A stretch of DNA of 20,000 nucleotides. Source: an uncultured virus (IMG/VR IMGVR_UViG_3300034284_002793). Lineage: Duplodnaviria > Heunggongvirae > Uroviricota > Caudoviricetes. This document shows positions 7,045 to 19,439 of the stretch, piece by piece. The notes beneath the pieces are model-generated. The model was not told the DNA's origin. It did not search any database and was given only the letters and a program-made list of their open reading frames with translations. The position numbers and the translations under genes were made by a program. The stretch lies in IMG/VR virus record IMGVR_UViG_3300034284_002793, positions 112,628 to 132,627 of that record; one strand, given 5' to 3'. Position 1 is the first letter of the stretch; every line of letters starts with the position of its first letter.

Positions 7045-7131
7045 ATGACACACATCATTATGACATACATTGCAGAGGCGCTTGCCGTGGTGCTTATCCT
7101 CCTGCTTGGCGTTGCGATTCTCTCGATCTAA
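7045..7131 (+). CDS. Small single-TM peptide (start 7045 or 7060)
   Basis: Hydrophobic LAVVLILLLGVAILSI. The stop TAA is the first triplet of element copy 1. Confidence 0.5.
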   Translation: MTHIIMTYIAEALAVVLILLLGVAILSI

Positions 7132-7203
7132 GTTGTTCTAAATCAACGACTTACAACGGGCCACCCTGCGCGCGCGCGTAAGTCCTTGATAATGAGGCAC
7201 TTA
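7129..7203. repeat. Double-palindrome element, copy 1
   Basis: taagttgttctaaatcaacgactta + 25-nt GC core + taagtccttgataatgaggcactta. Confidence 0.9.
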
Positions 7204-7257
7204 CGAATGTCAAGTAAAAAAGATAAAAAAAATTTCACACAATCGCAAAAAAATCCC

Positions 7258-7285
7258 TTGCTTTTTCGGTGGCCTGTGATACATT
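7258..7285 (+). promoter_or_regulatory. sigma70-like module promoter
   Basis: AATCGCAAAAAAATCCC-TTGCTT-16-TACATT. Equivalent promoters have -35 at 8193, 9767, 10536, 11900 and 13286. Confidence 0.75.
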
Positions 7286-7291
7286 GTATGT

Positions 7292-7639
7292 ATGAAAGAT
7301 AAAGAAAACACCACGTTCAACGTCAACGGAACCCTTTGCACGCTCGTCGTCTCGGAAGATCGGGAGGATGATTGCACGAAGCTTTGGCATGACCTCGTCA
7401 GCGTTGACACTGGCAAGGTCGTCGCAACCCTCGACTGGTCGCCCTACTCTTGCCCCTCTAATGAGGAAGTGCAGCAGATCATCGACCTCGGCCTGCCTAA
7501 TGGCTTGCGTTGGGCTAACTCTCACCCTTCTTCTCGCTTCAACTTCGATAGCCTCATGCTGGCGAAATACCTCTCTGGCTACGAGCATCCCGATGGCGGC
7601 AAGATCGAACTGGTCTTCCGCGTTCGCTTGGCCGCATAA
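7292..7639 (+). CDS. Hypothetical protein, 115 aa
   Basis: ATG 6 nt after the -10 box; codon usage matches the region. Confidence 0.8.
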   Translation: MKDKENTTFNVNGTLCTLVVSEDREDDCTKLWHDLVSVDTGKVVATLDWSPYSCPSNEEVQQIIDLGLPNGLRWANSHPSSRFNFDSLMLAKYLSGYEHPDGGKIELVFRVRLAA

Positions 7640-7682
7640 AAAAACTCTTGCGCTTCCACTCAACATCCCATACTCTAACAAT

Positions 7683-7892
7683 ATGAACAGCATCCACGAC
7701 GACTACAACACGCAACCGCAATCCGACGAATACGCGACCGAGCACGAGGAAGTGCGCGGCACGTTCGCCGCCGAGCCTGCCGTTGAGCAGGAGCCGCAAC
7801 CCTATGATGGGTTTGAGGGGCAGTGGGCTGGGGATGGGTCGGGCTTCGACGACCTCGCAGACTGGGGCGAGCAGGAGGGCTGGGACACGTAA
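7683..7892 (+). CDS. Very acidic hypothetical protein, 69 aa (start moved from tracked 7368)
   Basis: TTGCGC(7648)-17-TACTCT-6-ATG. N-terminus IHDDYNTQPQSDE is shared with the 13320 gene. Confidence 0.75.
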   Translation: MNSIHDDYNTQPQSDEYATEHEEVRGTFAAEPAVEQEPQPYDGFEGQWAGDGSGFDDLADWGEQEGWDT

Positions 7893-8012
7893 GAGTGTCA
7901 TAAACTTTCTCCGAACGTTTCGATGCGTGTCTCCATGACGCGGGAATAAACGATGAGGAGACGAAGCGCCCGTTTAAACGGGCGTTTCAATTTGCTAAAA
8001 TTCAATGTTGCG

Positions 8013-8087
8013 TAAACCCTTGATATTCAACAACTTACGCTGGCGCGCGGGGCGCGCGGCCGTAAGTCCTTGATAATTAACGACTTA
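8013..8087. repeat. Double-palindrome element, copy 2 (GC core inverted)
   Basis: taaacccttgatattcaacaactta + cgctggcgcgcggggcgcgcggccg + taagtccttgataattaacgactta. Confidence 0.9.
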
Positions 8088-8226
8088 CGTAACGTCATCA
8101 AGAGTGTCATAAAGAATGTCATAGCGCAAAATTCAAACGCTCGTTTGCCAAAACGTCAACAAAAATAGTTTCGCTAATCGCAAAAAAATATCTCGCTTTT
8201 CGCGCGTCCTGTGCTATTCTGTATAC

Positions 8227-8409
8227 ATGAGAAACAACAACAGAAGCTGGCGCGACGAAGAACGCGAAGCAACCCTCGACTACCCGCTAGGTGTGGATCG
8301 TGAAGATCCCGCCTACCAGCAAAGCCCAGACGCTTACGAGCGTGAAATCGAGCGCCTTAATCGGCACGAAGGCTGGGAGCGTAATCGCGGTGGTTACTAC
8401 CGCCGATGA
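8227..8409 (+). CDS. Hypothetical protein, 60 aa
   Basis: TGTGC-TATTCT-6-ATG. Confidence 0.7.
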   Translation: MRNNNRSWRDEEREATLDYPLGVDREDPAYQQSPDAYEREIERLNRHEGWERNRGGYYRR

Positions 8410-8452
8410 AAAATCGCTTGACTTTCAGCCCCATTTCACCGATACTTTCAAC

Positions 8453-8617
8453 ATGACAGAAAACACCACAACTGGCTGGCCCGAAGTCTGGAACTTCGAC
8501 GAACCCAAAGACGACAACCTCACGCCCGAACAAGCGTTCGACATCCTTTTCGGCTACGCCGAGGAGCGTCATCGCAACGACCCGTGCGCTCGTCCCGCCC
8601 CTAAACCCAAACACTAA
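8453..8617 (+). CDS. Hypothetical protein, 54 aa (start moved from tracked 8291)
   Basis: TTGACT(8418)-17-GATACT-6-ATG. Confidence 0.7.
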   Translation: MTENTTTGWPEVWNFDEPKDDNLTPEQAFDILFGYAEERHRNDPCARPAPKPKH

Positions 8618-8621
8618 CACT

Positions 8622-8831
8622 ATGACAAACACAGACGGCATCATCAAGTCGCTTGAAACTCTCATCAAGCATGAGAAAGCAATTCAGCGTCAAGAAAAAG
8701 AAATTGAAAAATTAAAAGACATCATTGATGGCTCTTTGCAGACGATGCAGGGCCTTCTTGTGTTGAGCGCTGTTCTCTCAAAAGAGATTGAAAGCTTGCA
8801 CAATAATAAGCCTTCTTTTGGACTAAACTAA
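8622..8831 (+). CDS. Hypothetical coiled-coil protein, 69 aa
   Basis: Tightly packed ORF with a heptad-like pattern. Confidence 0.65.
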   Translation: MTNTDGIIKSLETLIKHEKAIQRQEKEIEKLKDIIDGSLQTMQGLLVLSAVLSKEIESLHNNKPSFGLN

Positions 8832-8832
8832 C

Positions 8833-8988
8833 ATGAGCAAAATCATTATGACAATCGACACGCGACCGCTTGCGCGTGTCATAGAGCGCAGCGTCCGCAA
8901 GGCATCTTGCCGCCCATCCTTCGCCATGCGTGTCAAGAAAAAATTCGCGCGCAAGGCAAAGTTTTTTCGCGGTTGGTCTGATCAGTAA
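8833..8988 (+). CDS. Small basic protein, 51 aa (not in ORF track)
   Basis: MSKIIMTIDTRPLARVIERSVRKASCRPSFAMRVKKKFARKAKFFRGWSDQ. Starts right after the previous stop; its TAA is the first triplet of element copy 3. Confidence 0.6.
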   Translation: MSKIIMTIDTRPLARVIERSVRKASCRPSFAMRVKKKFARKAKFFRGWSDQ

Positions 8989-9060
8989 AGCTTTGAATAT
9001 CAACGACTTGCGGCGGCGCGCCCCGCCGCGCGGCATAACCCATTGCAAATCAACGACTTG
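8986..9060. repeat. Double-palindrome element, copy 3
   Basis: taaagctttgaatatcaacgacttg + cggcggcgcgccccgccgcgcggca + taacccattgcaaatcaacgacttg. Confidence 0.92.
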
Positions 9061-9072
9061 CAATATATAGTA

Positions 9073-9089
9073 TTCAGGTAGCGTGCCAA
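9073..9089 (-). promoter_or_regulatory. sigma54-like -24/-12 motif facing element 3
   Basis: Minus strand reads TTGGCACGCTACCTGAA. Confidence 0.55.
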
Positions 9090-9164
9090 TATTGGCGAAT
9101 CTATAAAAATAAAAAAATAAAAAAACCTATTGACGAAAACATCAAACCGAGTTAGCATAAATGT

Positions 9165-9629
9165 ATGAAAAATAAAATTATAACAATCATAGTCACTGCA
9201 TTGGTAACCGCAGCAGTTACTTTCGTTACTCTATCACTTACAGATAGCGAACCGCTGACCGACTGGGTAAAAATGGCGAAGTTAAGAATTAAAGGATGCT
9301 CTGATCCCGAGGCGCACCTGAGCAACGCCAAGCGGATAAAGGGTTGGCTTACCGCAGTTGGAGAGCATGAGCCTGTTAGTGTGAGAATCAGAGAAGGTGT
9401 AGGCTTGCCGCCAGACCAGAGTTTGGCTCCTAAAGGGGTTAAACTCACTCCAACAGCTACAGAAATGTTCATTTTAGTTCGTTCTTCTGATTTTGAGAAC
9501 AATATCCGTGAGATATACGAATTTGATCTCATGAAAATTATGGTGGATAAGGATGCAAGAAAACAATTAAGAGAACTTATTACCAAAACTAAAGCACAGA
9601 GCAATGAGTTTGGTTTCGGTAGTAACTAA
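9165..9629 (+). CDS. Membrane-anchored or secreted hypothetical protein, 154 aa
   Basis: N-terminal basic then hydrophobic segment. TTGACG(9130)-17-TAGCAT-6-ATG. Stop lies inside element 4. Confidence 0.8.
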   Translation: MKNKIITIIVTALVTAAVTFVTLSLTDSEPLTDWVKMAKLRIKGCSDPEAHLSNAKRIKGWLTAVGEHEPVSVRIREGVGLPPDQSLAPKGVKLTPTATEMFILVRSSDFENNIREIYEFDLMKIMVDKDARKQLRELITKTKAQSNEFGFGSN

Positions 9630-9697
9630 CTGAAATTCAACAACTTGCAGAGCCAGATCGGGCCGCGCGGCGTAACTCCTTGATATTCAAAGACTTA
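9623..9697. repeat. Double-palindrome element, copy 4
   Basis: taactaactgaaattcaacaacttg + 25-nt core + taactccttgatattcaaagactta. Confidence 0.88.
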
Positions 9698-9709
9698 CGC
9701 AAAACGCTA

Positions 9710-9726
9710 CGCAATAGCCATGCCAA
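9710..9726 (-). promoter_or_regulatory. sigma54-like -24/-12 motif facing element 4
   Basis: Minus strand reads TTGGCATGGCTATTGCG, with canonical GG-N10-GC. Confidence 0.6.
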
Positions 9727-9800
9727 GTTGCAGAAAAAAAATTTCACACAATCGCAAAAAAATCCCTTGCATTTTTGCGCGTCCGCGCTATATTGAAATC

Positions 9801-10316
9801 ATGAAAGAGAGAAAATCACTAAACGAAAAGCCTCTGACTTGCCTGTTCGTCGGCGTTACCCTCGCTTTGGTATCAGCAGGAGTTGCCATTTATGGGTTGC
9901 GGTTTGGGTTTGCGTCTATTGCCTTTTTGCTTGTTGCTGCTGCAATCTTAAATATCGCAGCGTGGTTTTTTGCCACCCCTGTCGTCTCTTTCGTTGGCGA
10001 TTTTGTAGGAAAATTTTTTACTGGAAGTCAAAACTTTAGCAAGCCCCAGCCTGCTTACAGCCTGCCAGATGGTCTTGCCGCTACCGGACAAAACGCTTGC
10101 GCTATCCTTGCCTACAATGAACTTGCAAAAAATCATCCCGAAGAAATCTTGCCTCATCTTCGCGTGATGAGAATATGGATTGAAAAAATGAATGACGTTG
10201 ACGCTGCGGTTATGGCTTACAATCTCGCCTTGAAAAAAATTCGCGGACAAAAAAATCGCAACGAGTTTACAAAAATGGCAAAAAATAATTTCAGCAAATT
10301 CATCAGCTTTGAATGA
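9801..10316 (+). CDS. Membrane protein with 2 predicted TM helices and a helical, possibly TPR-like C-terminus (start moved from tracked 9720)
   Basis: TTGCAT(9767)-16-TATATT-6-ATG; two hydrophobic stretches. Confidence 0.75.
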   Translation: MKERKSLNEKPLTCLFVGVTLALVSAGVAIYGLRFGFASIAFLLVAAAILNIAAWFFATPVVSFVGDFVGKFFTGSQNFSKPQPAYSLPDGLAATGQNACAILAYNELAKNHPEEILPHLRVMRIWIEKMNDVDAAVMAYNLALKKIRGQKNRNEFTKMAKNNFSKFISFE

Positions 10317-10383
10317 GTGTCATAGCAATGTCATAAACGCTCGGTCAAACGGGCGTTTTACTTTGCGCGAAACCAATTCTATA

Positions 10384-10458
10384 TAAACCCTTGAAAATCA
10401 ACGACTTACGGCGGCGCGCCCCGCCGCGCGGCGTAACCCATTGCAAATCAACAACTTA
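10384..10458. repeat. Double-palindrome element, copy 5
   Basis: taaacccttgaaaatcaacgactta + cggcggcgcgccccgccgcgcggcg + taacccattgcaaatcaacaactta. Confidence 0.92.
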
Positions 10459-10470
10459 CAACATACATCA

Positions 10471-10487
10471 TTCAGATAGCGTGCCAA
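10471..10487 (-). promoter_or_regulatory. sigma54-like motif facing element 5
   Basis: Minus strand reads TTGGCACGCTATCTGAA. Confidence 0.55.
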
Positions 10488-10569
10488 CTTTGCAGAGGGG
10501 CAAAAAATAAAAAAAATAAAAAACGAAAAAATCCCTTGCGTTTTTGCAGTCCTGTGCTATTCTTTAAGC

Positions 10570-10722
10570 ATGGAAAAGAAAATGACTCAATATGCGGACA
10601 AGCTCAACGCCTTCCGCGCTGGCGAAATCACCGAGGACGAATGGAAAGCGTTCTGTTTTGAGGCTCTCTCCGAGATTCTCGAAGACACGAAAGATGTCCT
10701 CATCAGGCTGAAAAATGCTTGA
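10570..10722 (+). CDS. Hypothetical protein, 50 aa (not in ORF track)
   Basis: TTGCGT(10536)-16-TATTCT-6-ATG; MEKKMTQYADKLNAFRAGEITEDEWKAFC... Confidence 0.7.
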   Translation: MEKKMTQYADKLNAFRAGEITEDEWKAFCFEALSEILEDTKDVLIRLKNA

Positions 10723-10753
10723 CCCAATCGCAACAATCAAACATACTACGACC

Positions 10754-10930
10754 ATGAAACAAACACCACAAAAAGCCCAACTCTGGGCAGTCGGAAACAA
10801 AGTCTATCGCGTCATCCGCAACGAAGGCGACAAGACTCACGTTCATCATCACGGGCAAATGGCCCTGTTCTATACGCGCCATCTGAAAATGGCGACACCT
10901 TCACAAGTTGCAGAATACTTGGGAAAATAG
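10754..10930 (+). CDS. Hypothetical protein, 58 aa
   Basis: TTGACC(10719)-17-CATACT-6-ATG. Confidence 0.7.
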   Translation: MKQTPQKAQLWAVGNKVYRVIRNEGDKTHVHHHGQMALFYTRHLKMATPSQVAEYLGK

Positions 10931-10966
10931 TTTGACAATCACCACAAAACCTAACAGAATAACAAC

Positions 10967-11182
10967 ATGACAAAAAAACAATTCACCGCAATCGCTAACA
11001 TCTTGGGAAAACGCTTGGCCGAAAAAGTCAAAGCACCCATCGGAGAATACGAAGTTGTCGAAGTCCTCGCGTTGGACTTGGCGAAATACTTCTCGACAGA
11101 AAACCCTCGTTTCGACGAAGATCGCTTTCTGGAAGCTGTTTTTACTCACACCCCTAACATCCCTGTGGGATCATATAAATAA
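10967..11182 (+). CDS. Hypothetical phage protein, 71 aa
   Basis: TTGACA(10932)-17-CAGAAT-6-ATG. MTKKQF..IA...NPRFD..RFL.A pattern recalls a common small phage protein. Confidence 0.8.
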   Translation: MTKKQFTAIANILGKRLAEKVKAPIGEYEVVEVLALDLAKYFSTENPRFDEDRFLEAVFTHTPNIPVGSYK

Positions 11183-11186
11183 TCAC

Positions 11187-11366
11187 ATGAAAAAATACAT
11201 CACATTCGACCGCATTGCCTACGCAATGTCCCTCTCCACCTTCATCTTCATCGCCGTGACGCTTTGCGCTGCTTGCGTTGAATTGCAAAACAGAACCAGC
11301 AAGAACCAAAAGCAAATGCAGGAAGAAGTCCGCGCAATGTTTGCCCACATCGAGGCACCTCTATGA
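11187..11366 (+). CDS. Small single-TM protein, 59 aa
   Basis: ATG just after the previous stop; hydrophobic segment; ATGA overlap with the next gene. Confidence 0.65.
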   Translation: MKKYITFDRIAYAMSLSTFIFIAVTLCAACVELQNRTSKNQKQMQEEVRAMFAHIEAPL

Positions 11367-11563
11367 TTACCCCCAATATCCAAAAAGCTCTTGAGTCAAA
11401 CGGAGTTCGTTTCTTTGCAAAAGACTTTCTCATGGAAGGTATGCGGAAAGACTGCGTTGACGCCGTGCATGATGCAAAACTCGTTTACGAATTGCTAAAA
11501 GAACGCATGGAAAAAATGCTTGCAATCGAACCCGAAGACGAATACATTAAAGCCAATGAGTAA
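11363..11563 (+). CDS. Hypothetical protein, 66 aa
   Basis: ATGA-coupled to the upstream ORF. Confidence 0.7.
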   Translation: MITPNIQKALESNGVRFFAKDFLMEGMRKDCVDAVHDAKLVYELLKERMEKMLAIEPEDEYIKANE

Positions 11564-11744
11564 AGACCAAGTCAAAGCCGTGTGCGATTACTCGCATGAT
11601 GTCATAATGAAAATCAAAGCCGTGTTCGGATTCAAAAAGAAAAGTCCTTCGCTTCTTTGTCATAGTCTCGCGCACCTCAACACCGCGACATGGCTTGAGC
11701 GCGCGGTCTGCAACGGCACAATCATGGACTACAAGCCGCGATAA
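11556..11744 (+). CDS. Hypothetical protein, 62 aa
   Basis: TTGCAA(11520)-17-TACATT-7-ATG. Stop lies 2 nt before element 6. Confidence 0.6.
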   Translation: MSKDQVKAVCDYSHDVIMKIKAVFGFKKKSPSLLCHSLAHLNTATWLERAVCNGTIMDYKPR

Positions 11745-11746
11745 CG

Positions 11747-11821
11747 TAAAGCGCTAATAATCAAGCACTTACGGCGGCGCGCCCCGCCGCGCAGCGTAAG
11801 TCGTTGAAAATCAATCACTTA
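11747..11821. repeat. Double-palindrome element, copy 6
   Basis: taaagcgctaataatcaagcactta + cggcggcgcgccccgccgcgcagcg + taagtcgttgaaaatcaatcactta. Confidence 0.92.
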
Positions 11822-11833
11822 GGCAAAAGCACT

Positions 11834-11850
11834 TTCATACAGTGTGCCAA
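11834..11850 (-). promoter_or_regulatory. sigma54-like motif facing element 6
   Basis: Minus strand reads TTGGCACACTGTATGAA. Confidence 0.5.
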
Positions 11851-11933
11851 GTCCGCTGTCAAGTAGAAAAAAAATATTTTTTTAATCGTAAAAAATTCCT
11901 TGCGTTTTTGGCATATTGTGGTATTCTTTAATT

Positions 11934-12173
11934 ATGAAAATCACCAAGCCCGACCTCTACGAAGCCCTCATCCAAGCGCGTGTCGCCTTATCGAAAGACA
12001 TCCGCGAAACTTTGCGCGGTCGCCACCTCTCCTACGTTCAAGACCTCTCGCGGAAATCCATCCGCGAAAAAATCGCGGCCTATCGGTTGCTCTCCAACCT
12101 CTCCACGATCAACGCGGAAAGCTACTCGGACAACCGCTCTCTGCGTCACGTTAAAAAAGCTCTTGCCAAGTAA
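11934..12173 (+). CDS. Basic hypothetical protein, 79 aa
   Basis: TTGCGT(11900)-16-TATTCT-6-ATG. Confidence 0.7.
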   Translation: MKITKPDLYEALIQARVALSKDIRETLRGRHLSYVQDLSRKSIREKIAAYRLLSNLSTINAESYSDNRSLRHVKKALAK

Positions 12174-12198
12174 CGCAATCTCTGACAAAATCACCACC

Positions 12199-12882
12199 AT
12201 GAAACTACTAAGCACCAACAATACCAAAATCAAAAAAGGCGAAAAGCTCGGCTGGCGCACTTACGGCCTTTCACTTTCACCCGCTGGCAAAAGTGGAAAA
12301 CAATTCTGTCCGCATCGCTCGGCTGGCTGTGAGTTTGCTTGTCTCGACACTTCGGGCATGGGCATCTTCTCAAACGTCCAAGACGCACGCCTTGCAAAGT
12401 CGCGTTTCTTCATCGACAACCGCAACGAGTTTCTCGCTCAGTTGCATAAAGAATTGCACAATGCCGAAAAGTGGAGCGCAAAAAATAATACGCCTGTGGC
12501 CGTGCGTCCGAACGTGCTTTCTGATCTGCCTTTCCATAAGCTGATCGACATGGCGCGCTTTCCGTCAATTCAGTTTTACGATTACACGCCGAACCTTCAA
12601 CGCATGATGCAGTTTCTAAACGGCGAGTTGCCTAAAAATTATCACCTGACCTTCTCGCGCAAAGAGGACAATCAGCATCGTGTCCACGCTGTTGTTGCCG
12701 CTGGCGGTAACGTGGCCGCTGTCTTTAGTGAGTTGCCCGAAACCTACCTCGGAAAGCCTGTCATAAACGGCGACGAAAGCGACTTGCGTTTTCTCGACGC
12801 GCAGGGCGTGATCGTTGGACTCAAAGCAAAAGGCAAAGCTCTCAAAGATCAATCTGGCTTTGTGGTGCAAGTTGGCGTATAA
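12199..12882 (+). CDS. GP88-family phage protein (Cys-cluster, possibly Fe-S)
   Basis: CPxxSxGCxxxCL, RPNVLSD, FYDYT, NYHLTFS, GGNVAAVF and GDESDLRFLD motifs recognised by eye. Promoter TTGCCA(12163)-17-CAAAAT. Confidence 0.75.
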   Translation: MKLLSTNNTKIKKGEKLGWRTYGLSLSPAGKSGKQFCPHRSAGCEFACLDTSGMGIFSNVQDARLAKSRFFIDNRNEFLAQLHKELHNAEKWSAKNNTPVAVRPNVLSDLPFHKLIDMARFPSIQFYDYTPNLQRMMQFLNGELPKNYHLTFSRKEDNQHRVHAVVAAGGNVAAVFSELPETYLGKPVINGDESDLRFLDAQGVIVGLKAKGKALKDQSGFVVQVGV

Positions 12883-12953
12883 TGAAAACCTATGGAAATC
12901 ATAATCCTTCTTGCTGGCATTATCGGTGGCGCATTACTAATAAATAAAAAATT

Positions 12954-13112
12954 ATGACACTAAACCTAATCGCACGAAAAAACTTGTTTCGCTTGTCTGA
13001 ATACTTTTTCAGCCTTGCGGTATGGTGGGAACGCGCTGGCGTTATGACACTCCAAAAACTTTTCTTTATGGGGTGGCAAAAATGCCTTGACACACGAGAC
13101 AAATTACGGTGA
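12954..13112 (+). CDS. Hypothetical protein, 52 aa (not in ORF track)
   Basis: MTLNLIARKNLFRLSEYFF...; stop lies 2 nt before element 7. Confidence 0.5.
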   Translation: MTLNLIARKNLFRLSEYFFSLAVWWERAGVMTLQKLFFMGWQKCLDTRDKLR

Positions 13113-13114
13113 CA

Positions 13115-13189
13115 TAACCTACTGAAAATCAACGACTTACGGCGGCGCGCCCCGCCGCGCGGCGTAAGTGCTTGAAAATCAACGACTTA
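13115..13189. repeat. Double-palindrome element, copy 7
   Basis: taacctactgaaaatcaacgactta + cggcggcgcgccccgccgcgcggcg + taagtgcttgaaaatcaacgactta. Confidence 0.92.
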
Positions 13190-13201
13190 TACAAAATGCC
13201 A

Positions 13202-13218
13202 TTCAAGAAGCATGCCAA
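13202..13218 (-). promoter_or_regulatory. sigma54-like motif facing element 7
   Basis: Minus strand reads TTGGCATGCTTCTTGAA. Confidence 0.55.
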
Positions 13219-13319
13219 CTCACAGAAAAAACGCTCGTTTGAATTTTCGTCAACAAAAATACTTTTCAGAATCGCAAAAAATCCATTGCATCGTGCCGTG
13301 CCTGTGCTACTCTTTACCT

Positions 13320-13451
13320 ATGCAAGCGAACACCATCACCGACGACTTCAACACGCAAACCCAAAGCGACGAGTTTGCCTCCGAATTTGAGGCTTGGCTC
13401 GACGCGCAGGAACTGAAATACTGGCAGGAAATCGACGCTCGCGGAAATTAA
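13320..13451 (+). CDS. Acidic peptide, 43 aa, paralogous N-terminus to the 7683 gene
   Basis: TTGCAT(13286)-16-TACTCT-6-ATG; ITDDFNTQTQSDEFA. Confidence 0.7.
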   Translation: MQANTITDDFNTQTQSDEFASEFEAWLDAQELKYWQEIDARGN

Positions 13452-13455
13452 TTTT

Positions 13456-13692
13456 ATGACAAACACAAACCCACTACACGGCTACCTCTCCGACTGCTGC
13501 GGAGCCGAACACGACATCAACGCCGAACACCACATTCTCAACGAGAGTGTGCGTGGAGGATGCTCCGCTTGCGGACACTACTCGGAGTTTTCCCCTGTGG
13601 AGGAAAACGTCCGGCACAATCAACGCATCAGCCTCTCCGCTCTCAATGCGTTCGTGCCAGACGAGTTGAACTCTTACGAGCAGCCGTGGTAA
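13456..13692 (+). CDS. Small zinc-ribbon-like protein
   Basis: SDCCGA...GGCSACGH cysteine pairs. Confidence 0.7.
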   Translation: MTNTNPLHGYLSDCCGAEHDINAEHHILNESVRGGCSACGHYSEFSPVEENVRHNQRISLSALNAFVPDELNSYEQPW

Positions 13693-13735
13693 ATTGTTTG
13701 ACACTCTCAACCCTAACAACTAACATCATCAATCT

Positions 13736-14230
13736 ATGAACAAAGCAAAAGTCCTAATCAGTCCTTACGGAAACGGCATCGCTGTCGGCCTTGAGGGAAA
13801 CAAAGATCAAATCGAACGCGAATATAATCGCTTTTTTAATTGGGGCGCAGCTGGTGCTGGCGCGAATGTCGAACGTGGCAACGGCGACTCTGAAATCCAG
13901 CACGGAGAACTTGGCGACTCTTACCTCCACTATGTCGGAGAAGGGTTTGCCTACTTCCTGTCATCGGAAAAAGATATGCTTCGCGCTATGACATATGAAC
14001 ACTTGACCAAGTGGCAAGATAGCGAAACGTCAGCGCAATATAAAACAAAGCCACGCAATCACAAGAGGGATTCGGGCAAGGTATTCCGCGAACACGCGCA
14101 GATCGCAGCGCAAGACGAATATAATGAAATCGAACGCGAGAACTTCATGCTCTACCAGAAAGCTCCCGCATACATCTTCCGCGAGCTTGATGGCGGCGCG
14201 CCGTCTTGGAGAAGTGAAACGGAGGACTAA
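13736..14230 (+). CDS. Hypothetical protein, 164 aa
   Basis: TTGACA(13698)-17-TAACAT upstream; codon usage matches the region. Confidence 0.8.
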   Translation: MNKAKVLISPYGNGIAVGLEGNKDQIEREYNRFFNWGAAGAGANVERGNGDSEIQHGELGDSYLHYVGEGFAYFLSSEKDMLRAMTYEHLTKWQDSETSAQYKTKPRNHKRDSGKVFREHAQIAAQDEYNEIERENFMLYQKAPAYIFRELDGGAPSWRSETED

Positions 14231-14234
14231 TATA

Positions 14235-14504
14235 ATGAAAAAAATACTTGTCACCGTTAAGCAAATTATAGAAGTCCCAGACTCTTTCAAAATTACAAGT
14301 TTTACAGAGCCAGGAGATGTAGCGTTTGATTATATAAAAATAGGAAAAAAATTAACTGCGCCAGATATAACATGGTTTGACTATGACAAAGTTTCTGGCG
14401 TTGGAAGCGAGAGCGACGAACTCGTTGAGCGTCTCGCCCCTGCAATAGTTGACTACTCCTTGCAAGAATTTTCTTTCGATGAAGATCCTAACGTAAGTTG
14501 TTGA
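14235..14504 (+). CDS. Hypothetical protein, 89 aa, AT-rich codons
   Basis: GGAGG upstream; ATG just after the previous stop; its TGA lies inside element 8. Confidence 0.7.
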   Translation: MKKILVTVKQIIEVPDSFKITSFTEPGDVAFDYIKIGKKLTAPDITWFDYDKVSGVGSESDELVERLAPAIVDYSLQEFSFDEDPNVSC

Positions 14505-14568
14505 AAATCAACGACTTGCGGCCCCGCGCCCCGCGCCCATGTGTAAGTGCTTGATACTGAACAACTTA
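14494..14568. repeat. Double-palindrome element, copy 8
   Basis: taagttgttgaaaatcaacgacttg + 25-nt core + taagtgcttgatactgaacaactta. Confidence 0.9.
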
Positions 14569-14635
14569 TACATAATACCATAACAAGCCCATCTGATAAT
14601 AATAATGCATTTTTATTCATATGATAGTGTTTTAT

Positions 14636-14702
14636 CTATTTAGCTATTTGACTAATAACTATTTCCTATTTATCTATTTCACTTTTAGCTATTTCGCTAT
14701 TT
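14636..14702 (+). repeat. CTATTT direct-repeat array
   Basis: Exact CTATTT at 14636, 14644, 14659, 14666, 14674, 14689 and 14697, with degenerate copies at 14652 and 14682. Confidence 0.8.
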
Positions 14703-14810
14703 GTCGAAGTATTTAAGAAATTTCGACAGGTTTTTTTGTTATGTCGAAAGGATCGACATGAGAGAAAAACATTTGACTGATGTGTAAATTGTGATAGAGT
14801 TGGAGGTAGA

Positions 14811-14884
14811 GGAGTTTTAGCTCAATTGGTTAGAGCGCTGCCCTGTCACGGCAGAGGTTGCGGGTTCGAGCCCCGTAAACTCCG
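14811..14884 (+). tRNA. tRNA-Asp(GTC)
   Basis: Acceptor ggagttt/aaactcc; anticodon arm ctgcc-ctGTCac-ggcag; TTCGA T-loop; no encoded CCA. Promoter TTGACT(14773)-16-TAGAGT. Confidence 0.95.
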
Positions 14885-14892
14885 TTTTTTTT

Positions 14893-14967
14893 GGGAAGGT
14901 AGCTCAAAGGTAGAGCAGCGCCCTTTTAAGGCGTTGGTTCTGGGTTCGATCCCCAGTCTTCCCACCA
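14893..14967 (+). tRNA. tRNA-Lys(TTT)
   Basis: Acceptor gggaagg/tcttccc; gcgcc-ctTTTaa-ggcgt; encoded CCA. Confidence 0.95.
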
Positions 14968-15033
14968 AAAAAATTTCAAAAAATAATCAAAATACCCGTT
15001 GACAAAACCATCAAAAAACCCTATTCTTAAAAC

Positions 15034-15297
15034 ATGAAAGCACTACTAAATAAAGTCAAACTCGCAATCGCTGACTCCAAAATCGGTCAGTTCACCAACC
15101 CTGTGTATCGCTTGAAGTATCGGCCTTACACCGAACAAGGAAACAATGAGGTTTATACCTACTTCGTTTCTCGACCCTTCGACTTGTTCGCTAACGGAAT
15201 CGTGGCTTACTGCTTCGGCAAAGGTGTTCGCAGGTTCCGCTACGATGAAATCGTTGAGCGGGAAGTTGTATCGCTCTTTGGAAAATCTGTGGCGTAA
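15034..15297 (+). CDS. Small WYL-like (Sm/SH3-type barrel) domain protein
   Basis: LKY...VSRPF...IVAYCFGKGVRRFRYDEI matches the WYL RxFRxDRI signature. TTGACA(14999)-17-TATTCT-6-ATG. Confidence 0.6.
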   Translation: MKALLNKVKLAIADSKIGQFTNPVYRLKYRPYTEQGNNEVYTYFVSRPFDLFANGIVAYCFGKGVRRFRYDEIVEREVVSLFGKSVA

Positions 15298-15312
15298 AGC
15301 CACGAATAAACA

Positions 15313-16050
15313 ATCTGCCCGACAATCAATATCGGAAATAAAAGAAGCAAAGTTAACCGGATCTTTGCGGTGGTCGCTTAATGCGAAATATAAAACATCC
15401 GCCGAGGCAGATAAACATTTACAAGTAGCCCGAAAAAATATCGGAAACAAAAGCAGGACAGAATAGCGTCTGTCATCATATACAAAACGCACCGAGGCTT
15501 GAAATATGGGAGTCGCCCCGACCCCAAAGATGTAATGCATGACATCTCGGGGCAACTTTAAATATCTACGAGTTCATACCAGAGGGAACTGGTGCCCACG
15601 CGTAGAGAATAAACTCCCAAACTTTTAGTTCTTTTACATCTTGAGGGCTGACTCCTCCCAGAAGGGGGAGAGCGCGCAGCAGAAAACCAGAGGAATTAAC
15701 CTCCAGCCCACAACTCTCCCAAGCTCTGGCGGATACATCTCCGTTCAACTTGTGAGCTAGTCGTCGAAAGACGATTCGATGTCGGTGCCGCCAGAAGGCA
15801 CGGAGTCATAGGCAGGGAGTTCTGGCCTCCCTGTCAACACTTTCTGTCATAAAAAAAAATCGCCGTGGAGTAACGGTCCACTAGTCAGAACCTACTGATG
15901 AATAAGAGTAAGCTGATCGTGACAGCAATAAAGGGGATGGTCACCACCGACCCGCGAGCGGCTCGCGTTAGCTGGTTAGTGCTGCAAAGCATTAGCCCCC
16001 ATTTGATCCGTAAGGAGACGATGATGGGAAGCATGGCAGCCGACACTTTC
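15313..16050 (+). ncRNA. Candidate large structured ncRNA, or cluster of ncRNAs, upstream of tRNA-Cys
   Basis: No convincing ORF; many nested stems, GNRA tetraloops and complementary loops (see findings). Confidence 0.65.
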
Positions 16051-16121
16051 GCACCTTTAGCCAAGTGGTAAGGCAGGAGTCTGCAACACTCTTATCGCTG
16101 GTTCGAATCCAGCAAGGTGCT
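16051..16121 (+). tRNA. tRNA-Cys(GCA)
   Basis: Acceptor gcacctt/aaggtgc; ggagt-ctGCAac-actct; U discriminator; no CCA. Confidence 0.93.
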
Positions 16122-16187
16122 GATTATCAACGAGTTACAGCTACACGCCCCGCCGCGCCGCGTAAATGCTTGAATATCAACGCTTTA
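16113..16187. repeat. Double-palindrome element, copy 9, overlapping the tRNA-Cys 3' end
   Basis: caaggtgctgattatcaacgagtta + 25-nt core + taaatgcttgaatatcaacgcttta. Confidence 0.85.
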
Positions 16188-16240
16188 TAAAGTATAAATA
16201 TCCAGTTGACAAAATTTTCAAATAGGGCTATTCTTACAGC

Positions 16241-16966
16241 ATGATCACCACACAACTACCTCTACCCATGCGTTGCTCTTCTGATGCTCTCGTTCAGCCA
16301 GAGCTTGAACTCAAGCCTACGCGCAATCCTTCCTACTCTCGCGTCGAACGCTTCTTTGATTCCTTGGATCGTTCGCGTGTTGTGTCATACACCGACTACT
16401 GGAATTCCATTGCGCCCAAAGGAACACAAGATGCAATGTTGCGCTGGCTCTTTGCTTTTATGTCAGTCCATACGAGTTGGAAGTCCAACGTCAACGGCTA
16501 CAACGCAATCAAAACAATGGATTGGTGGCACGATCAACAAGTCCTCCTTAACAAGCTCAAGCATAGTGGCGTTGGCTTGCACAACAATCGCACGAAATTT
16601 GTCTGGCAGTTCCAGAAAAACTTTTGGGGTGATGTCAAAAAGTATTCTCACGCTCCTACGGATTGGCGCGGTCATCGTGACGAGTTGGTTAGCGAAGTGC
16701 TTGGTCTTGGCAAAGCTAAAGTCTCTTTCTCGTTGGAGATGATTCATCCCGACAAGTGCGAAGTTGTCTGCATGGATACTCATATGTTCCAAGCCTACTC
16801 GCTCGACCAAACCAAAGACGAAAAACATTACGATAACATCGAAGCCCATTGGATTTCAATGTGCCGTGCGTATGACGTTCCCTGCTACATTGCGCGTTGC
16901 CTTTACTGGGATGCGATTCAAGACAAGCAGGATTCGCGCTACTGGTCGTATGTTTTTGAAGAATAA
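16241..16966 (+). CDS. Helix-hairpin-helix DNA glycosylase-like protein (Ogg/EndoIII superfamily)
   Basis: LVSEVLGLGKAKVSF HhH-like motif followed by VVCMDTHM with the catalytic-type Asp. Promoter TTGACA(16206)-17-TATTCT-6-ATG. Confidence 0.7.
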   Translation: MITTQLPLPMRCSSDALVQPELELKPTRNPSYSRVERFFDSLDRSRVVSYTDYWNSIAPKGTQDAMLRWLFAFMSVHTSWKSNVNGYNAIKTMDWWHDQQVLLNKLKHSGVGLHNNRTKFVWQFQKNFWGDVKKYSHAPTDWRGHRDELVSEVLGLGKAKVSFSLEMIHPDKCEVVCMDTHMFQAYSLDQTKDEKHYDNIEAHWISMCRAYDVPCYIARCLYWDAIQDKQDSRYWSYVFEE

Positions 16967-17004
16967 TCCTTGCAATCCATTTCAAAATCCAATACATTAA
17001 GAAC

Positions 17005-17229
17005 ATGAACAAAACCACTACCATCATCACCCGCCGTTCACCCTTCACCCAAAAAGTTAACAGGATGGAGATTCCTCTCTCCCATTCGGAGTTTGAGAAG
17101 AGGACAATTCTTTGGCAGTCTGGGATGCTCATTCAAGATGCGTTCCCCATGCTGTCCGCTGATGAGCGCGAGTTCATCAAAACTGGTATCACTCCCGAAG
17201 AGTGGGAACAGATGTTTGGAGAAGACTAA
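17005..17229 (+). CDS. Hypothetical phage protein, 74 aa
   Basis: TTGCAA(16970)-17-TACATT-6-ATG; LIQDAFPxLSADEREFIKTG motif familiar from small phage proteins. Confidence 0.8.
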   Translation: MNKTTTIITRRSPFTQKVNRMEIPLSHSEFEKRTILWQSGMLIQDAFPMLSADEREFIKTGITPEEWEQMFGED

Positions 17230-17250
17230 TATAGAAAGGAGGAAAATATA

Positions 17251-17421
17251 ATGAAACTAATCGAAGGTGCTATTTATAACTACAAAGGGGAAGCTGTTCG
17301 TTTCCGTAAACAGATTGGCGTTGTTGCTTTCTTGTCGCGTCGTAAGCGAGGTTCGTTTGTTGGACGAACTGATTTGCTCAAGAAGGCAAATAAAAAGCAG
17401 GTCGATAAATTCCTCAAATAA
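17251..17421 (+). CDS. Basic hypothetical protein, 56 aa (not in ORF track)
   Basis: AAAGGAGG upstream; MKLIEGAIYNYKGEAVRF...; stop lies 3 nt before element 10. Confidence 0.7.
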   Translation: MKLIEGAIYNYKGEAVRFRKQIGVVAFLSRRKRGSFVGRTDLLKKANKKQVDKFLK

Positions 17422-17424
17422 GCG

Positions 17425-17499
17425 TAAAGCTCTCGTAATCATGGGGTTACGAGGGCGCGCCCCGCCGCGCTGCGTAAGTCGTTGGAAATCAACCACTTG
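17425..17499. repeat. Double-palindrome element, copy 10
   Basis: taaagctctcgtaatcatggggtta + cgagggcgcgccccgccgcgctgcg + taagtcgttggaaatcaaccacttg. Confidence 0.88.
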
Positions 17500-17511
17500 C
17501 GCATTTGTCCT

Positions 17512-17528
17512 TTCAGGAACCGTGCCAA
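17512..17528 (-). promoter_or_regulatory. sigma54-like motif facing element 10
   Basis: Minus strand reads TTGGCACGGTTCCTGAA. Confidence 0.55.
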
Positions 17529-17605
17529 TTCCCAGAAAAATATTTTCAATCAAATTGCAAAAAAAGGTTTGCTCGCTCATACAAAAACACTTATTCTTAT
17601 GAAGT

Positions 17606-18385
17606 ATGAGAAACCTAAACCTAACACTGCACTGCGGCGGTCACGCCGTGGAATCCACCCAAGTTCAGCAAACTCCCACTCCCGCACCCACGGATTCGTG
17701 GATGCCCATCCCGCACTTCGCGCTCATCGAGCGTCTGCGCGAGATCGTCGGTAGTGCTGGCTTGACCATCACGCAAGAGGCGCACGCCCTTGCTCGCAAC
17801 GGCCTTCGCTACTTCGGATTGTTCCAAGTGGCGGGAATCCCCAACTTCTCACAGGAGTCCAACATCGGGACTGTGATCGGCTTGCGCAACTCGCACGACA
17901 AGTCGTTTCCCGCTGGCATCAACGCTGGTTCCGCGCCTTTCGTGTGCGACAACCTCGCGTTTCACAACGAGATCAAAATCGCTCGTCGTCACACCAAGTT
18001 CATCATGCGCGACCTTCCTTCGCTCCTTTCGGGCGCATTCGGAAAGTTGCTCAACACTTGGGGCAACAACGCCAAGCGTATCGAGGCTTACCAGTCTTGC
18101 GCGCTCAAGGACGTTCAAGCGCACGACCTCATCGCCAAGGCTTACCGCTGTGGCGCAGTGAGCAAGACCGCTCTGGCGGACGTTCTCGACCAGTGGCACA
18201 ACCCCGAACACGCCGAGTGGTCGGAGCAGAAGAACCTCTGGGGTCTTCACAACTCCTTCACCAACGTCATGCGCGGAAACGTGCTCGCGTTGCCCAAGCG
18301 TAGCGATGCGCTCCACGGACTTCTCGACCCTATCGCAGGCGTGGCGCTGGCGAGGGCAGAAGACGCCGAGGCCATCACGGTCTAA
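17606..18385 (+). CDS. DUF932-family phage/plasmid protein
   Basis: PIPH...FGL...GLRNSHDKS...G..FVCDNL...RHT motifs typical of DUF932. Confidence 0.8.
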   Translation: MRNLNLTLHCGGHAVESTQVQQTPTPAPTDSWMPIPHFALIERLREIVGSAGLTITQEAHALARNGLRYFGLFQVAGIPNFSQESNIGTVIGLRNSHDKSFPAGINAGSAPFVCDNLAFHNEIKIARRHTKFIMRDLPSLLSGAFGKLLNTWGNNAKRIEAYQSCALKDVQAHDLIAKAYRCGAVSKTALADVLDQWHNPEHAEWSEQKNLWGLHNSFTNVMRGNVLALPKRSDALHGLLDPIAGVALARAEDAEAITV

Positions 18386-18400
18386 ATTCTGAGACGCACA

Positions 18401-18438
18401 AAAGGGCTTGGCAGGGCAACCTGTCAAGTCTTTTTTTT
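18401..18438 (+). terminator. Intrinsic terminator
   Basis: ggcttggcagg-gcaa-cctgtcaagtc hairpin followed by T8. Confidence 0.85.
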
Positions 18439-18457
18439 GCAAAAATTCATTGTTGTG

Positions 18458-18532
18458 TAAGTCATTGAATATCAAGCACTTGCGCCGCCGCGCCCAGCTG
18501 CCCAGCGTAAGTCTTTGATTGTCAAGGGTTTA
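18458..18532. repeat. Double-palindrome element, copy 11
   Basis: taagtcattgaatatcaagcacttg + 25-nt core + taagtctttgattgtcaagggttta. Confidence 0.9.
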
Positions 18533-18596
18533 CATTTTAATGCAAAAAATATCTTGACCGCACACGCAAAAGACTTTATTGTCATTATATCACCAC

Positions 18597-18923
18597 ATGA
18601 AACTATCAGAAATTCAAGCCATTGCAAACCTCACAGCAAAATTCCTCGGACTCCCAATCAAACCCAAGGCCGAAATTACTACCAATAAACGAGGCCGCGC
18701 CTACACCACGCAGGGCCGCTTCAATATTCCAGAGTGGGCCTTCAAGCACGGAGAAAAGTTTGTCATATACTATGTTGTGCATGAAGTCTGCCACTTTTAC
18801 GGAGGAACATTAGATCACGGCAAACTCTTTTGTCAAGTCGAAGACCGCGCATTAAAATTTTGGGGGCTTTACATTCAACGCAAAAAAGTTTATCCTAATC
18901 CACAATCAATCTACAAACTATGA
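18597..18923 (+). CDS. Small zincin metallopeptidase-like protein (SprT/YgjP-like)
   Basis: YYVVHEVCH...DHGKLF (HExxH plus distal His). Confidence 0.75.
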   Translation: MKLSEIQAIANLTAKFLGLPIKPKAEITTNKRGRAYTTQGRFNIPEWAFKHGEKFVIYYVVHEVCHFYGGTLDHGKLFCQVEDRALKFWGLYIQRKKVYPNPQSIYKL

Positions 18924-19168
18924 GCAAAAATACCTGCCCTGCTGATTACGATGGCGAAATGCTTGTTATCGGTGGCTATGTAAAATACGATGGAAAGACT
19001 TGGGAAGTCCTTGACTACGAAGATTCCGAACAGCCATACTTTGATGATAACTACACGGAACATAGTATTCTTTTATTGGCTTGCCGCTCGCAAGAGGAAG
19101 ACAATATTTGGATACCAGATTATGAGGTAGAGCAAACTGAATATCAGCAATTGTGTTTTGAACTATGA
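18920..19168 (+). CDS. Acidic hypothetical protein, 82 aa
   Basis: ATGA-coupled to the upstream gene. Confidence 0.7.
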   Translation: MSKNTCPADYDGEMLVIGGYVKYDGKTWEVLDYEDSEQPYFDDNYTEHSILLLACRSQEEDNIWIPDYEVEQTEYQQLCFEL

Positions 19169-19247
19169 AAAATATCGTTCTATTTGTCGCTCTACCTATC
19201 ACTATTTGTGTCTGGTCGTTCACTATTTATGGAGTAATTAAATTTTT

Positions 19248-19320
19248 GGGGTGGTAGCTCAATGGTTAGAGCGTGCGGCTCATAATCGCTTGGTTGTCGG
19301 TTCGAATCCGACCCGCCCCA
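19248..19320 (+). tRNA. tRNA with CAT anticodon, probably Ile2 (lysidine type) rather than Met
   Basis: Acceptor ggggtgg/ccgcccc; loop ctCATaa. The CTCATAATCGCTTGGT stretch resembles bacterial tRNA-Ile2; the paired 1-72 position argues against an initiator. Confidence 0.88.
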
Positions 19321-19395
19321 CATCTATTTGAAAATCAAGCACTTACAGATGAGTGCCCCGCCGCGCCGCGTAAGTCGTTGATATTCAATGGCTTA
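19321..19395. repeat. Double-palindrome element, copy 12, abutting the tRNA 3' end
   Basis: catctatttgaaaatcaagcactta + 25-nt core + taagtcgttgatattcaatggctta. Confidence 0.85.
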
Positions 19396-19439
19396 CAAAA
19401 ACACTTGACACCAATCGCAACCTGTGATACATTTAGAGG

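Follow-up and report, generated by a model that had tools for sequence, protein, structure and literature searches.

A conserved small RNA was identified in a 20,000-nucleotide stretch of DNA from an uncultured virus of the Caudoviricetes. The stretch, here called the window, comprises bases 112628-132627 of the 132,627-base virus record IMGVR_UViG_3300034284_002793, which is rated 88% complete, and all positions below are those of the window. The RNA, referred to as the core RNA, is about 133 nt long and is very probably a real structured RNA in which the loops of two hairpins, P3 and P4, pair with each other (L3:L4). It represents a family outside Rfam, which belongs among the small structured RNAs of phage tRNA islands and is distinguished by a well-documented kissing loop. 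Its carriers are uncultured freshwater phages, in which it lies together with tRNA genes and further small RNA cassettes in an early-gene block.

The loops of P3 and P4, which are 6-8 nt long, were found to be complementary in five versions, and the kissing loop is therefore taken to be real. The version GCCAGAA/UUCUGGC, with 7 bp, was present in 36 sequences. Both loops are one nucleotide shorter in L025 (GCCAGA/UCUGGC), L039 has GCUAGA/UCUAGC, and the loops of L023 consist of different letters (GUUAAG/CUUAAC), with a seventh pair possible. Contiguous Watson-Crick pairing of 6-7 bp was observed in 39 of 40 sequences, the exception being L067 (GACAGG/CCUG(A)UC), where four contiguous pairs are followed by two more past a bulged A. 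Main-family loops were also found in L012, on a wholly different P4 stem. The probability that random pairs of 7-nt loops reach at least six contiguous pairs is P = 8.6e-4. The best partner of each L3 was its own L4, with 4-7 pairs, compared to 2-3 pairs with foreign L4s; only the near-identical versions of the main family and L025 cross-matched, at six pairs. The complementarity ends exactly at the loop borders. The energy of the loop duplex is about -5 to -10 kcal/mol, and -9.7 kcal/mol in the main version.

Relatives of the core RNA were first reached via a neighbouring 241-aa open reading frame (ORF), which led to eight related phage loci. Only 15713-15845 was kept in these loci (88-92% identity), and the preceding DNA was replaced. 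A scan with a two-loop pattern resulted in nine viral loci, including the diverged L012, and a pattern of the P1a hairpin plus the GAUGUCGG strand resulted in 12 viral and 41 metagenome loci. Six of the metagenome loci (L045, L055, L058, L066, L068 and L070) were chance matches and were dropped before alignment, while L041 and L049 were true but truncated and were excluded from alignments A1 and A3. The covariance model R1 matched 46 phage or metagenome stretches at E <= 3.8e-20, among 54 sources, and the 40 distinct full-length sequences of these matches make up alignment A3. The core RNA of the window scored 168.7 bits with R1 and is a single copy in its phage record. Three further virus records, among them a complete 76-kb genome, had one copy each. 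Five lineages, L012, L023, L025, L039 and L067, were diverged from the main family.

Further searches covered other patterns and collections. A pattern free of the P1a loop gave 37 loci, of which the 25 new ones did not match R1 and resembled GC-rich coding DNA. With the P1a hairpin alone 30 loci were obtained, and all 21 new ones were matches to the 16-20-nt hairpin only, in coding-like DNA. In prokaryote species genomes two loci matched only locally (17 and 15 bits), and no carrier was shown there. When 15400-16200 was compared by blastn with 50,697 phage records, only a 53-57-nt tRNA-like piece was matched, in seven records, and the core was unmatched. Lake and freshwater metagenomes contained DNA nearly identical to that of the window; at least half of the sampled words were present in 18 runs, eight of which are possibly the source itself. 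Relatives of the core covering 15713-15845 were present in contigs from the RNA libraries X19, X22 and X24 (two studies). These contigs run on into other cassettes and could stem from DNA carry-over; they show neither transcription nor RNA ends and give at most a hint. Their copies of the core deviate from that of the window on both strands of P2 (15762-64 and 15771-73) and are natural compensatory variants.

Changes on both sides of a pair were found in 25 of the 43 proposed pairs of the core RNA, compared to 7.5±1.8 in shuffles, none of which (0 of 500) reached 25. The number of changed pairs in each helix is listed in Table 1. In A3, 96.3% of the cells at paired positions were paired, and sliding the partners by 1-3 columns reduced this to 36-45%; for P3 the value was 100%. 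All pairs of P1a are invariant, and this hairpin therefore has no evidence from covariation. Two extra pairs of P0 (15716-17 / 15802-03) compete with the outer end of P1. The loop of P2 is GAAA, GCAA or GUAA in the main family. The strand J2/3 contains the invariant GAUGUCGG, which was demanded by the search patterns for four of the five diverged lineages. The linker between P3 and P4 is 9-11 nt long where P3 has 5 bp and 14-16 nt long where P3 has 7 bp.

For the region spanning module A (Table 1) and the core, the fold of the + strand was -80.7 kcal/mol (z -3.64 against shuffles, 0 of 200), and that of the - strand was less clear (z -2.17, 3 of 200 shuffles). The frequent G-U pairs, which would be A-C on the other strand, together with the GNRA loops of P2 assign the RNA to the + strand. 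The core also shares its orientation with the tRNAs, which points to the same strand. Competing helices formed from the same letters showed no compensatory change. The minimum free energy (MFE) helix UCUGGCGG/CCGCCAGA was rejected, having 0 of 8 compensatory pairs and being lost where L3 had changed. Likewise, a pseudoknot between the P1a loop and GAUGU had 0 of 5 compensatory pairs, and one of its pairs was broken in six sequences.

Table 1. Features of the core RNA and its surroundings in the window.
Feature	Position	Strand	Remarks
Sigma-70-like promoter match	14999..15027	+	TTGACA, 17 nt, TATTCT; consensus scan only
Module A	15645..15709	+	Separate small three-way-junction RNA cassette; MFE fold and covariation
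Module A closing helix, gggctg/cagccc	15645-50 / 15704-09	+	Covaries in 9 distinct variants
Module A hairpins	15652-58/15664-70 and 15690-93/15700-03	+	Both compensated in L004
Core RNA, ~133 nt	15713..15845	+	Conserved family member
P0, 3 bp	15713-15 (ACU) / 15804-06 (AGU)	+	2/3 pairs changed on both sides
P1, 8 bp	15716-23 / 15749-56	+	One C-U mismatch in the window; 5/8 pairs changed on both sides
P1a, hairpin inside P1	15729-33 / 15740-44	+	Loop UACAUC 15734-39; 0/5 pairs changed, invariant in 40 sequences
P2, hairpin	15760-65 / 15770-75	+	GNRA loop GAAA 15766-69; 5/6 pairs changed on both sides
J2/3, single strand	15776..15784	+	UCGAUGUCG; conserved
P3, hairpin	15785-89 / 15797-15801	+	Loop L3 GCCAGAA 15790-96; 3/5 pairs changed on both sides
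Linker	15802..15810	+	GGAGUCAUA; contains the P0 3' strand 15804-06
P4, hairpin, 9 bp	15811-19 / 15827-35	+	Loop L4 UUCUGGC 15820-26; 8/9 pairs changed on both sides
Tail after P4	15836..15849	+	AACACUUUCUGUCA; U-rich, below the terminator-like threshold in the window
tRNA-Cys(GCA)	16051..16121	+	Downstream end of the RNA island

In an earlier note on this DNA, 15645-15835 had been described as one RNA domain with complementary loops and a pseudoknot. All the complementary letters listed there are present in the window at the positions given, and the suggestion of a structured RNA with a genuine loop-loop contact was borne out by the covarying loops and stems. The proposed stem gtgcc/ggcac, which is P3, showed compensatory changes in relatives, and the two loops said to match, GCCAGAA and TTCTGGC, are exact complements with five covarying versions. 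A lack of compensatory changes in homologues had been named as evidence against the contacts. Such changes were found, in the loops of four diverged lineages and in most of the stems.

The outer part of the description was not supported, as the region consists of two separate RNA cassettes, module A and the core, rather than a single multi-branch domain of 190 nt. The domain had been closed by tgactcc (15649-55) and ggagtca (15802-08). No compensatory change was observed for this pairing, and its 5' partner lies in module A; in L004 two letters of tgactcc are changed with ggagtca unchanged, and the compensation takes place inside module A. Of the 40 distinct cores, 34 retain GGAGUCA, in which GGAGU is predicted to pair with the adjacent ACUCU rather than with tgactcc. 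The proposed stem gggagag (15666-72) / ctctccc (15714-20) was also without compensatory change, gggagag being part of module A and CUCUCCC being conserved without it. For agctc (15722-26) / gagct (15754-58) the count was 0 of 5, and the pairing is lost in L012 and L023; P1, which uses another register, has 5 of 8. The match of the 5' gggctg to cagccc was a correct pairing that covaries (variants include GGGCUG/CAGCCC, GGGUUG/CAACCC and GAGCUG/CAGCUC), but it forms no pseudoknot and is the plain nested closing helix of module A.

Among 37 distinct upstream contexts of the core, only 9 have module A immediately before it, and in the other 28 module A is absent or replaced; another cassette stands between the two in L003 and L046. 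The first third of the proposed domain (15645-15709) is a different cassette, which is shuffled independently of the core. Six exact 7-nt inverted pairs were counted in 15645-15835, compared to 1.36 (sd 1.48) in dinucleotide-preserving shuffles, of which 34 of 2000 reached six. Inverted pairs are enriched overall in this region, yet any single 7-mer match is at chance level.

Known RNA families were searched with Rfam 15. At the gathering score only four tRNAs were found in the window. At E <= 10, 14700-16300 gave tRNAs and four weak hits overlapping tRNA genes, with none in 14965-16050, and no ribozyme, riboswitch, pRNA, ROOL or GOLLD match was obtained in the region. A pRNA model is contained in Rfam. 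Twelve related loci searched at E <= 0.1 also resulted in tRNAs and tRNA-overlapping hits only, and a transfer-messenger RNA was considered and rejected, as ARAGORN found none. No description of the core motif was found in the literature. A catalogue of 8,495 candidate RNAs from IMG/VR has been reported (PMC10690425), and a prior listing of the motif among these candidates is possible. Six contig numbers were sought in the searchable tables of PMC10690425 and none was present there.

In the explanation preferred for the core RNA, the helices P0, P1 (with P1a), P2 and P3 would meet at a junction, followed by P4. The L3:L4 contact would be formed within one molecule and would clamp P4 onto the junction, presumably constitutively, since the loop duplex is a perfect Watson-Crick duplex. 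The clamp would result in a compact and stable RNA particle, which may be cut from an early transcript shared with tRNA-Cys, and its working surface for a partner would be formed by hairpin P1a and the invariant strands of the junction. This explanation as a whole is given slightly less than an even chance, and for its central part, the intramolecular nature of the L3:L4 pairing, the chances are judged to be equal; any specific function is rated much lower. The increase in linker length with P3 length, seen in five lineages, is more readily understood for a linker that bridges two parts of one molecule. An intramolecular contact is also sterically precedented by the similar layout of the env8HyCbl cobalamin riboswitch, whose L5-L13 kissing loop is made by a hairpin joined to a four-way junction through a 7-nt linker (PMC5028336). 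The two RNAs share a short linker and a hairpin loop pairing with a loop of the junction domain, and probably a helix-closed central junction. P1-P3, P4 and L3:L4 are supported in the core, whereas the closing helix P0 has just 3 bp.

Several observations weigh against this explanation. P0 is short and weak in L012, L023, L039 and L067, and the four-way junction is therefore provisional. The covariation of the loops is carried by four lineages of a single sequence each, and the diversity is thin, with an effective sequence number of 2.09 and a closely related main family. Four of the five diverged lineages were fetched with patterns demanding the P1a and J2/3 blocks, so that the invariance of these blocks is partly by construction, and only L012 was found independently. 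Fitting of alignment A3 by the model favours the nested helices, while the pairs between the two loops lie outside the model. The 9-nt linker, three nucleotides of which are within P0, is short for a clamp. The sequence also has no feature that distinguishes intramolecular from intermolecular pairing, and the covarying kissing loops of ROOL and GOLLD, once regarded as tertiary, turned out to be intermolecular (PMC12286853).

L3 could instead pair with L4 of another copy, head-to-tail, to form dimers, rings or chains of a small self-assembling phage RNA. This is considered possible, although clearly less than an even prospect. Two mutually complementary and covarying loops in one RNA are the signature of the phi29 packaging RNA, pRNA, which multimerises through intermolecular kissing of identical molecules and resembles the core in being phage-encoded, of similar size and built around a junction (PMC4201828, PMC2241910). 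The core has this loop trait in its five versions, and the strong loop duplex and the short linker, which could disfavour folding back, also fit pairing between copies. The loop contact of pRNA is reported to be intermolecular and to build a ring on the packaging motor, to which pRNA binds, while the core is known from its sequence alone. The core has no Rfam match to pRNA, and its phage record is 132.6 kb. The genome of a phi29-like phage is small in comparison. ROOL and GOLLD are likewise phage- or prophage-encoded, are often found near tRNA islands and have covarying kissing loops, which are quaternary contacts (PMC12286853). They are several hundred nucleotides long (GOLLD often >800), compared to about 133 nt for the core, and form multimeric cages seen by cryo-electron microscopy. 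The name of GOLLD reflects its discovery, which was also made in lake samples. The dependence of linker length on P3 length, although drawn from only five lineages, argues against pairing between copies, as do the intramolecular precedent of similar layout (PMC5028336) and the lack of a pRNA, ROOL or GOLLD match in Rfam.

The parallel with cobalamin riboswitches (junction, linker, regulatory hairpin and kissing loop) raises the question of a ligand-binding RNA, where the junction would be the pocket and the kissing loop would couple it to P4 as a terminator. The highly conserved junction strands and the U-rich tail that follows the GC-rich P4 in 16 of 40 sequences fit such a role. This is nevertheless improbable. 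The core lies outside 5' leaders, and what stands downstream is not a constant gene, the core being followed by tRNA-Cys, by RNA cassettes or by genes with promoter-like sites of their own; in L074, L075 and L076 it stands directly behind the stop codon of an ORF. L4 holds no ribosome-binding site, and no Rfam riboswitch model matched at E <= 10. A conserved non-canonical pair and unpaired purines interrupt the cobalamin kissing loop, while the loop pairing of the core is perfect in 39 of 40 sequences, and perfect L5-L13 pairing in env8HyCbl makes the contact ligand-independent (PMC5028336). A self-cleaving ribozyme or processing element that cuts a multi-cassette early transcript is equally improbable. 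The invariant nucleotides are concentrated in junction strands beside variable stems, and the core lies in an array of RNAs needing separation. Loop-loop tertiary contacts are also common in small ribozymes. The invariance is partly a search artefact, however, the array has one copy of the core in spite of many cassette borders that would need cutting, and no Rfam ribozyme matched in the window (E <= 10) or in the 12 related loci (E <= 0.1). The single 190-nt domain, with tgactcc/ggagtca as closure and gggagag/ctctccc and agctc/gagct as inner stems, has in its favour that all three pairings are exact complements in the window. It is very improbable, as GGAGUCA and CUCUCCC are conserved regardless of whether module A precedes the core, and as the changes in L004 and the count for agctc/gagct go against it. 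Least probable of all, and barely credible, is that there is no functional RNA and that the signal comes from a repeat or protein-binding site at the DNA level, or from conserved non-coding DNA that is complementary by chance. The window is rich in DNA repeats, but the core region lies outside the repeat families, pairing is maintained by the compensatory changes, among them G-U pairs that would read A-C on the opposite strand, and GNRA loops are present. The relatives in RNA-library contigs also speak against this, although this is a weak point in view of possible DNA carry-over.

The RNA region lies within about 1.08 kb without convincing genes, from tRNA-Lys (14893-14967) to tRNA-Cys. tRNA-Asp and tRNA-Lys are upstream of the core and tRNA-Cys is downstream, and relatives are likewise placed in tRNA islands. 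In this respect the core resembles RNAC and RNAD of phage T4, which are small RNAs transcribed from the tRNA region of the phage, with roles unknown (PMC3014915). Unlike in location, no similarity in sequence was found between these RNAs and the core by blastn of phage records in distant mode. The slot of the core is ordered as promoter-like site, 87-aa ORF, RNA region, tRNA-Cys and the next repeat (16110-16200). The promoter-like site (Table 1) could drive both the ORF at 15034-15297 and the RNA island, and the same promoter-like cassette recurs in the window ahead of further small genes. The ORFs adjoining the RNA in four phage lineages, including the 87-aa ORF, had no family in PHROGs or Pfam. 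The 241-aa ORF (16241-16966, +) is conserved in eight related phage contigs with 51-100% identity, and its sole family hint was a weak match to Ogg-HhH (8-oxoguanine glycosylase fold), with 20.6 bits against a Pfam cut-off of 27. The repeats of the window are 11 copies of a 75-91-nt element in 7129-19408 with a GC-rich palindromic centre. Each copy is followed by an A-rich tract and a promoter-like CCCTTGC...TATTCT cassette, and then by a small gene.

The sequence 3' of P4 was found to vary. In relatives of the L008 type tRNA-Cys begins about 10 nt past P4, and in others a second structured cassette, as at 15862-16046 in the window, or other cassettes follow. In L074, L075 and L076 the core is placed ahead of promoter-like sites. 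A tail was regarded as terminator-like if it began 0-2 nt past the stem and had five or more U among 8 nt. Such a tail was present after P4 in the 16 distinct homologues mentioned above and not in the window copy, and P4 may therefore end the RNA in some phages only.

The second cassette, module 2 (15862-16046, +), is conserved and structured and stands just before tRNA-Cys; related loci had 13 distinct variants, and in L076 the tRNA that comes after it is tRNA-Asn. RNAalifold predicted 27 pairs, six of them with compensatory changes, and several further stems, visible by eye, were not captured. Module 2 has no Rfam match and is absent from L008-type relatives, L012 and L025. A hammerhead was considered for module 2 on account of its CUGAUGA and was rejected, as there was no Rfam match and, by eye, too few bases for stem I.

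Upstream, a small cassette at 15429-15505 (+) consists of AGCCCGAA, a GGACAG/CUGUC hairpin and CCGAGGCU, in this order. It is 200 nt away from the core in the window, and cassettes of this type are directly upstream of the core in L004, L033, L040, L053 and L069, among others. The spacer UUAGUUCUUUUACA occurs once in the window (15625-15638, +). In relatives it recurs before module A, before cassettes of the 15429 type and the CUGUGGUC type, and before module 2 (L023), and it may be a start or processing signal. The conserved stretch 15560-15640 (+) has a nested hairpin, UCUACG ... ACCAG-AGGGAA-CUGGU ... CGUAGA; it shows about 93% identity in L007, occurs in L003, L005 and L008 as well, and is possibly a further cassette. 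Upstream of the core, related phages have at least eight different cassettes that look structured, in 37 distinct contexts (15300-16050, L003-L072). The region 15300-16050 behaves as a mosaic of interchangeable RNA modules.

Abundant RNAs whose function is unknown are concealed in phage tRNA islands, T4 RNAC and RNAD, ROOL and GOLLD being examples, and the core RNA is a small and tractable case of this kind. It has a clean architecture and a loop contact backed by natural compensatory changes, and at 133 nt it is easy to make and to mutate. There is some possibility, although it is the lesser one, that the core is a minimal self-assembling RNA made early beside the phage tRNAs, a counterpart in freshwater phages of pRNA or of the ROOL and GOLLD cages. 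If so, module A, module 2 and the other shuffled cassettes could supply additional components of an RNA-only assembly, or its cargo. The mosaic of at least eight interchangeable RNA cassettes suggests that these phages may trade structured RNAs as modules, in the same way as genes.

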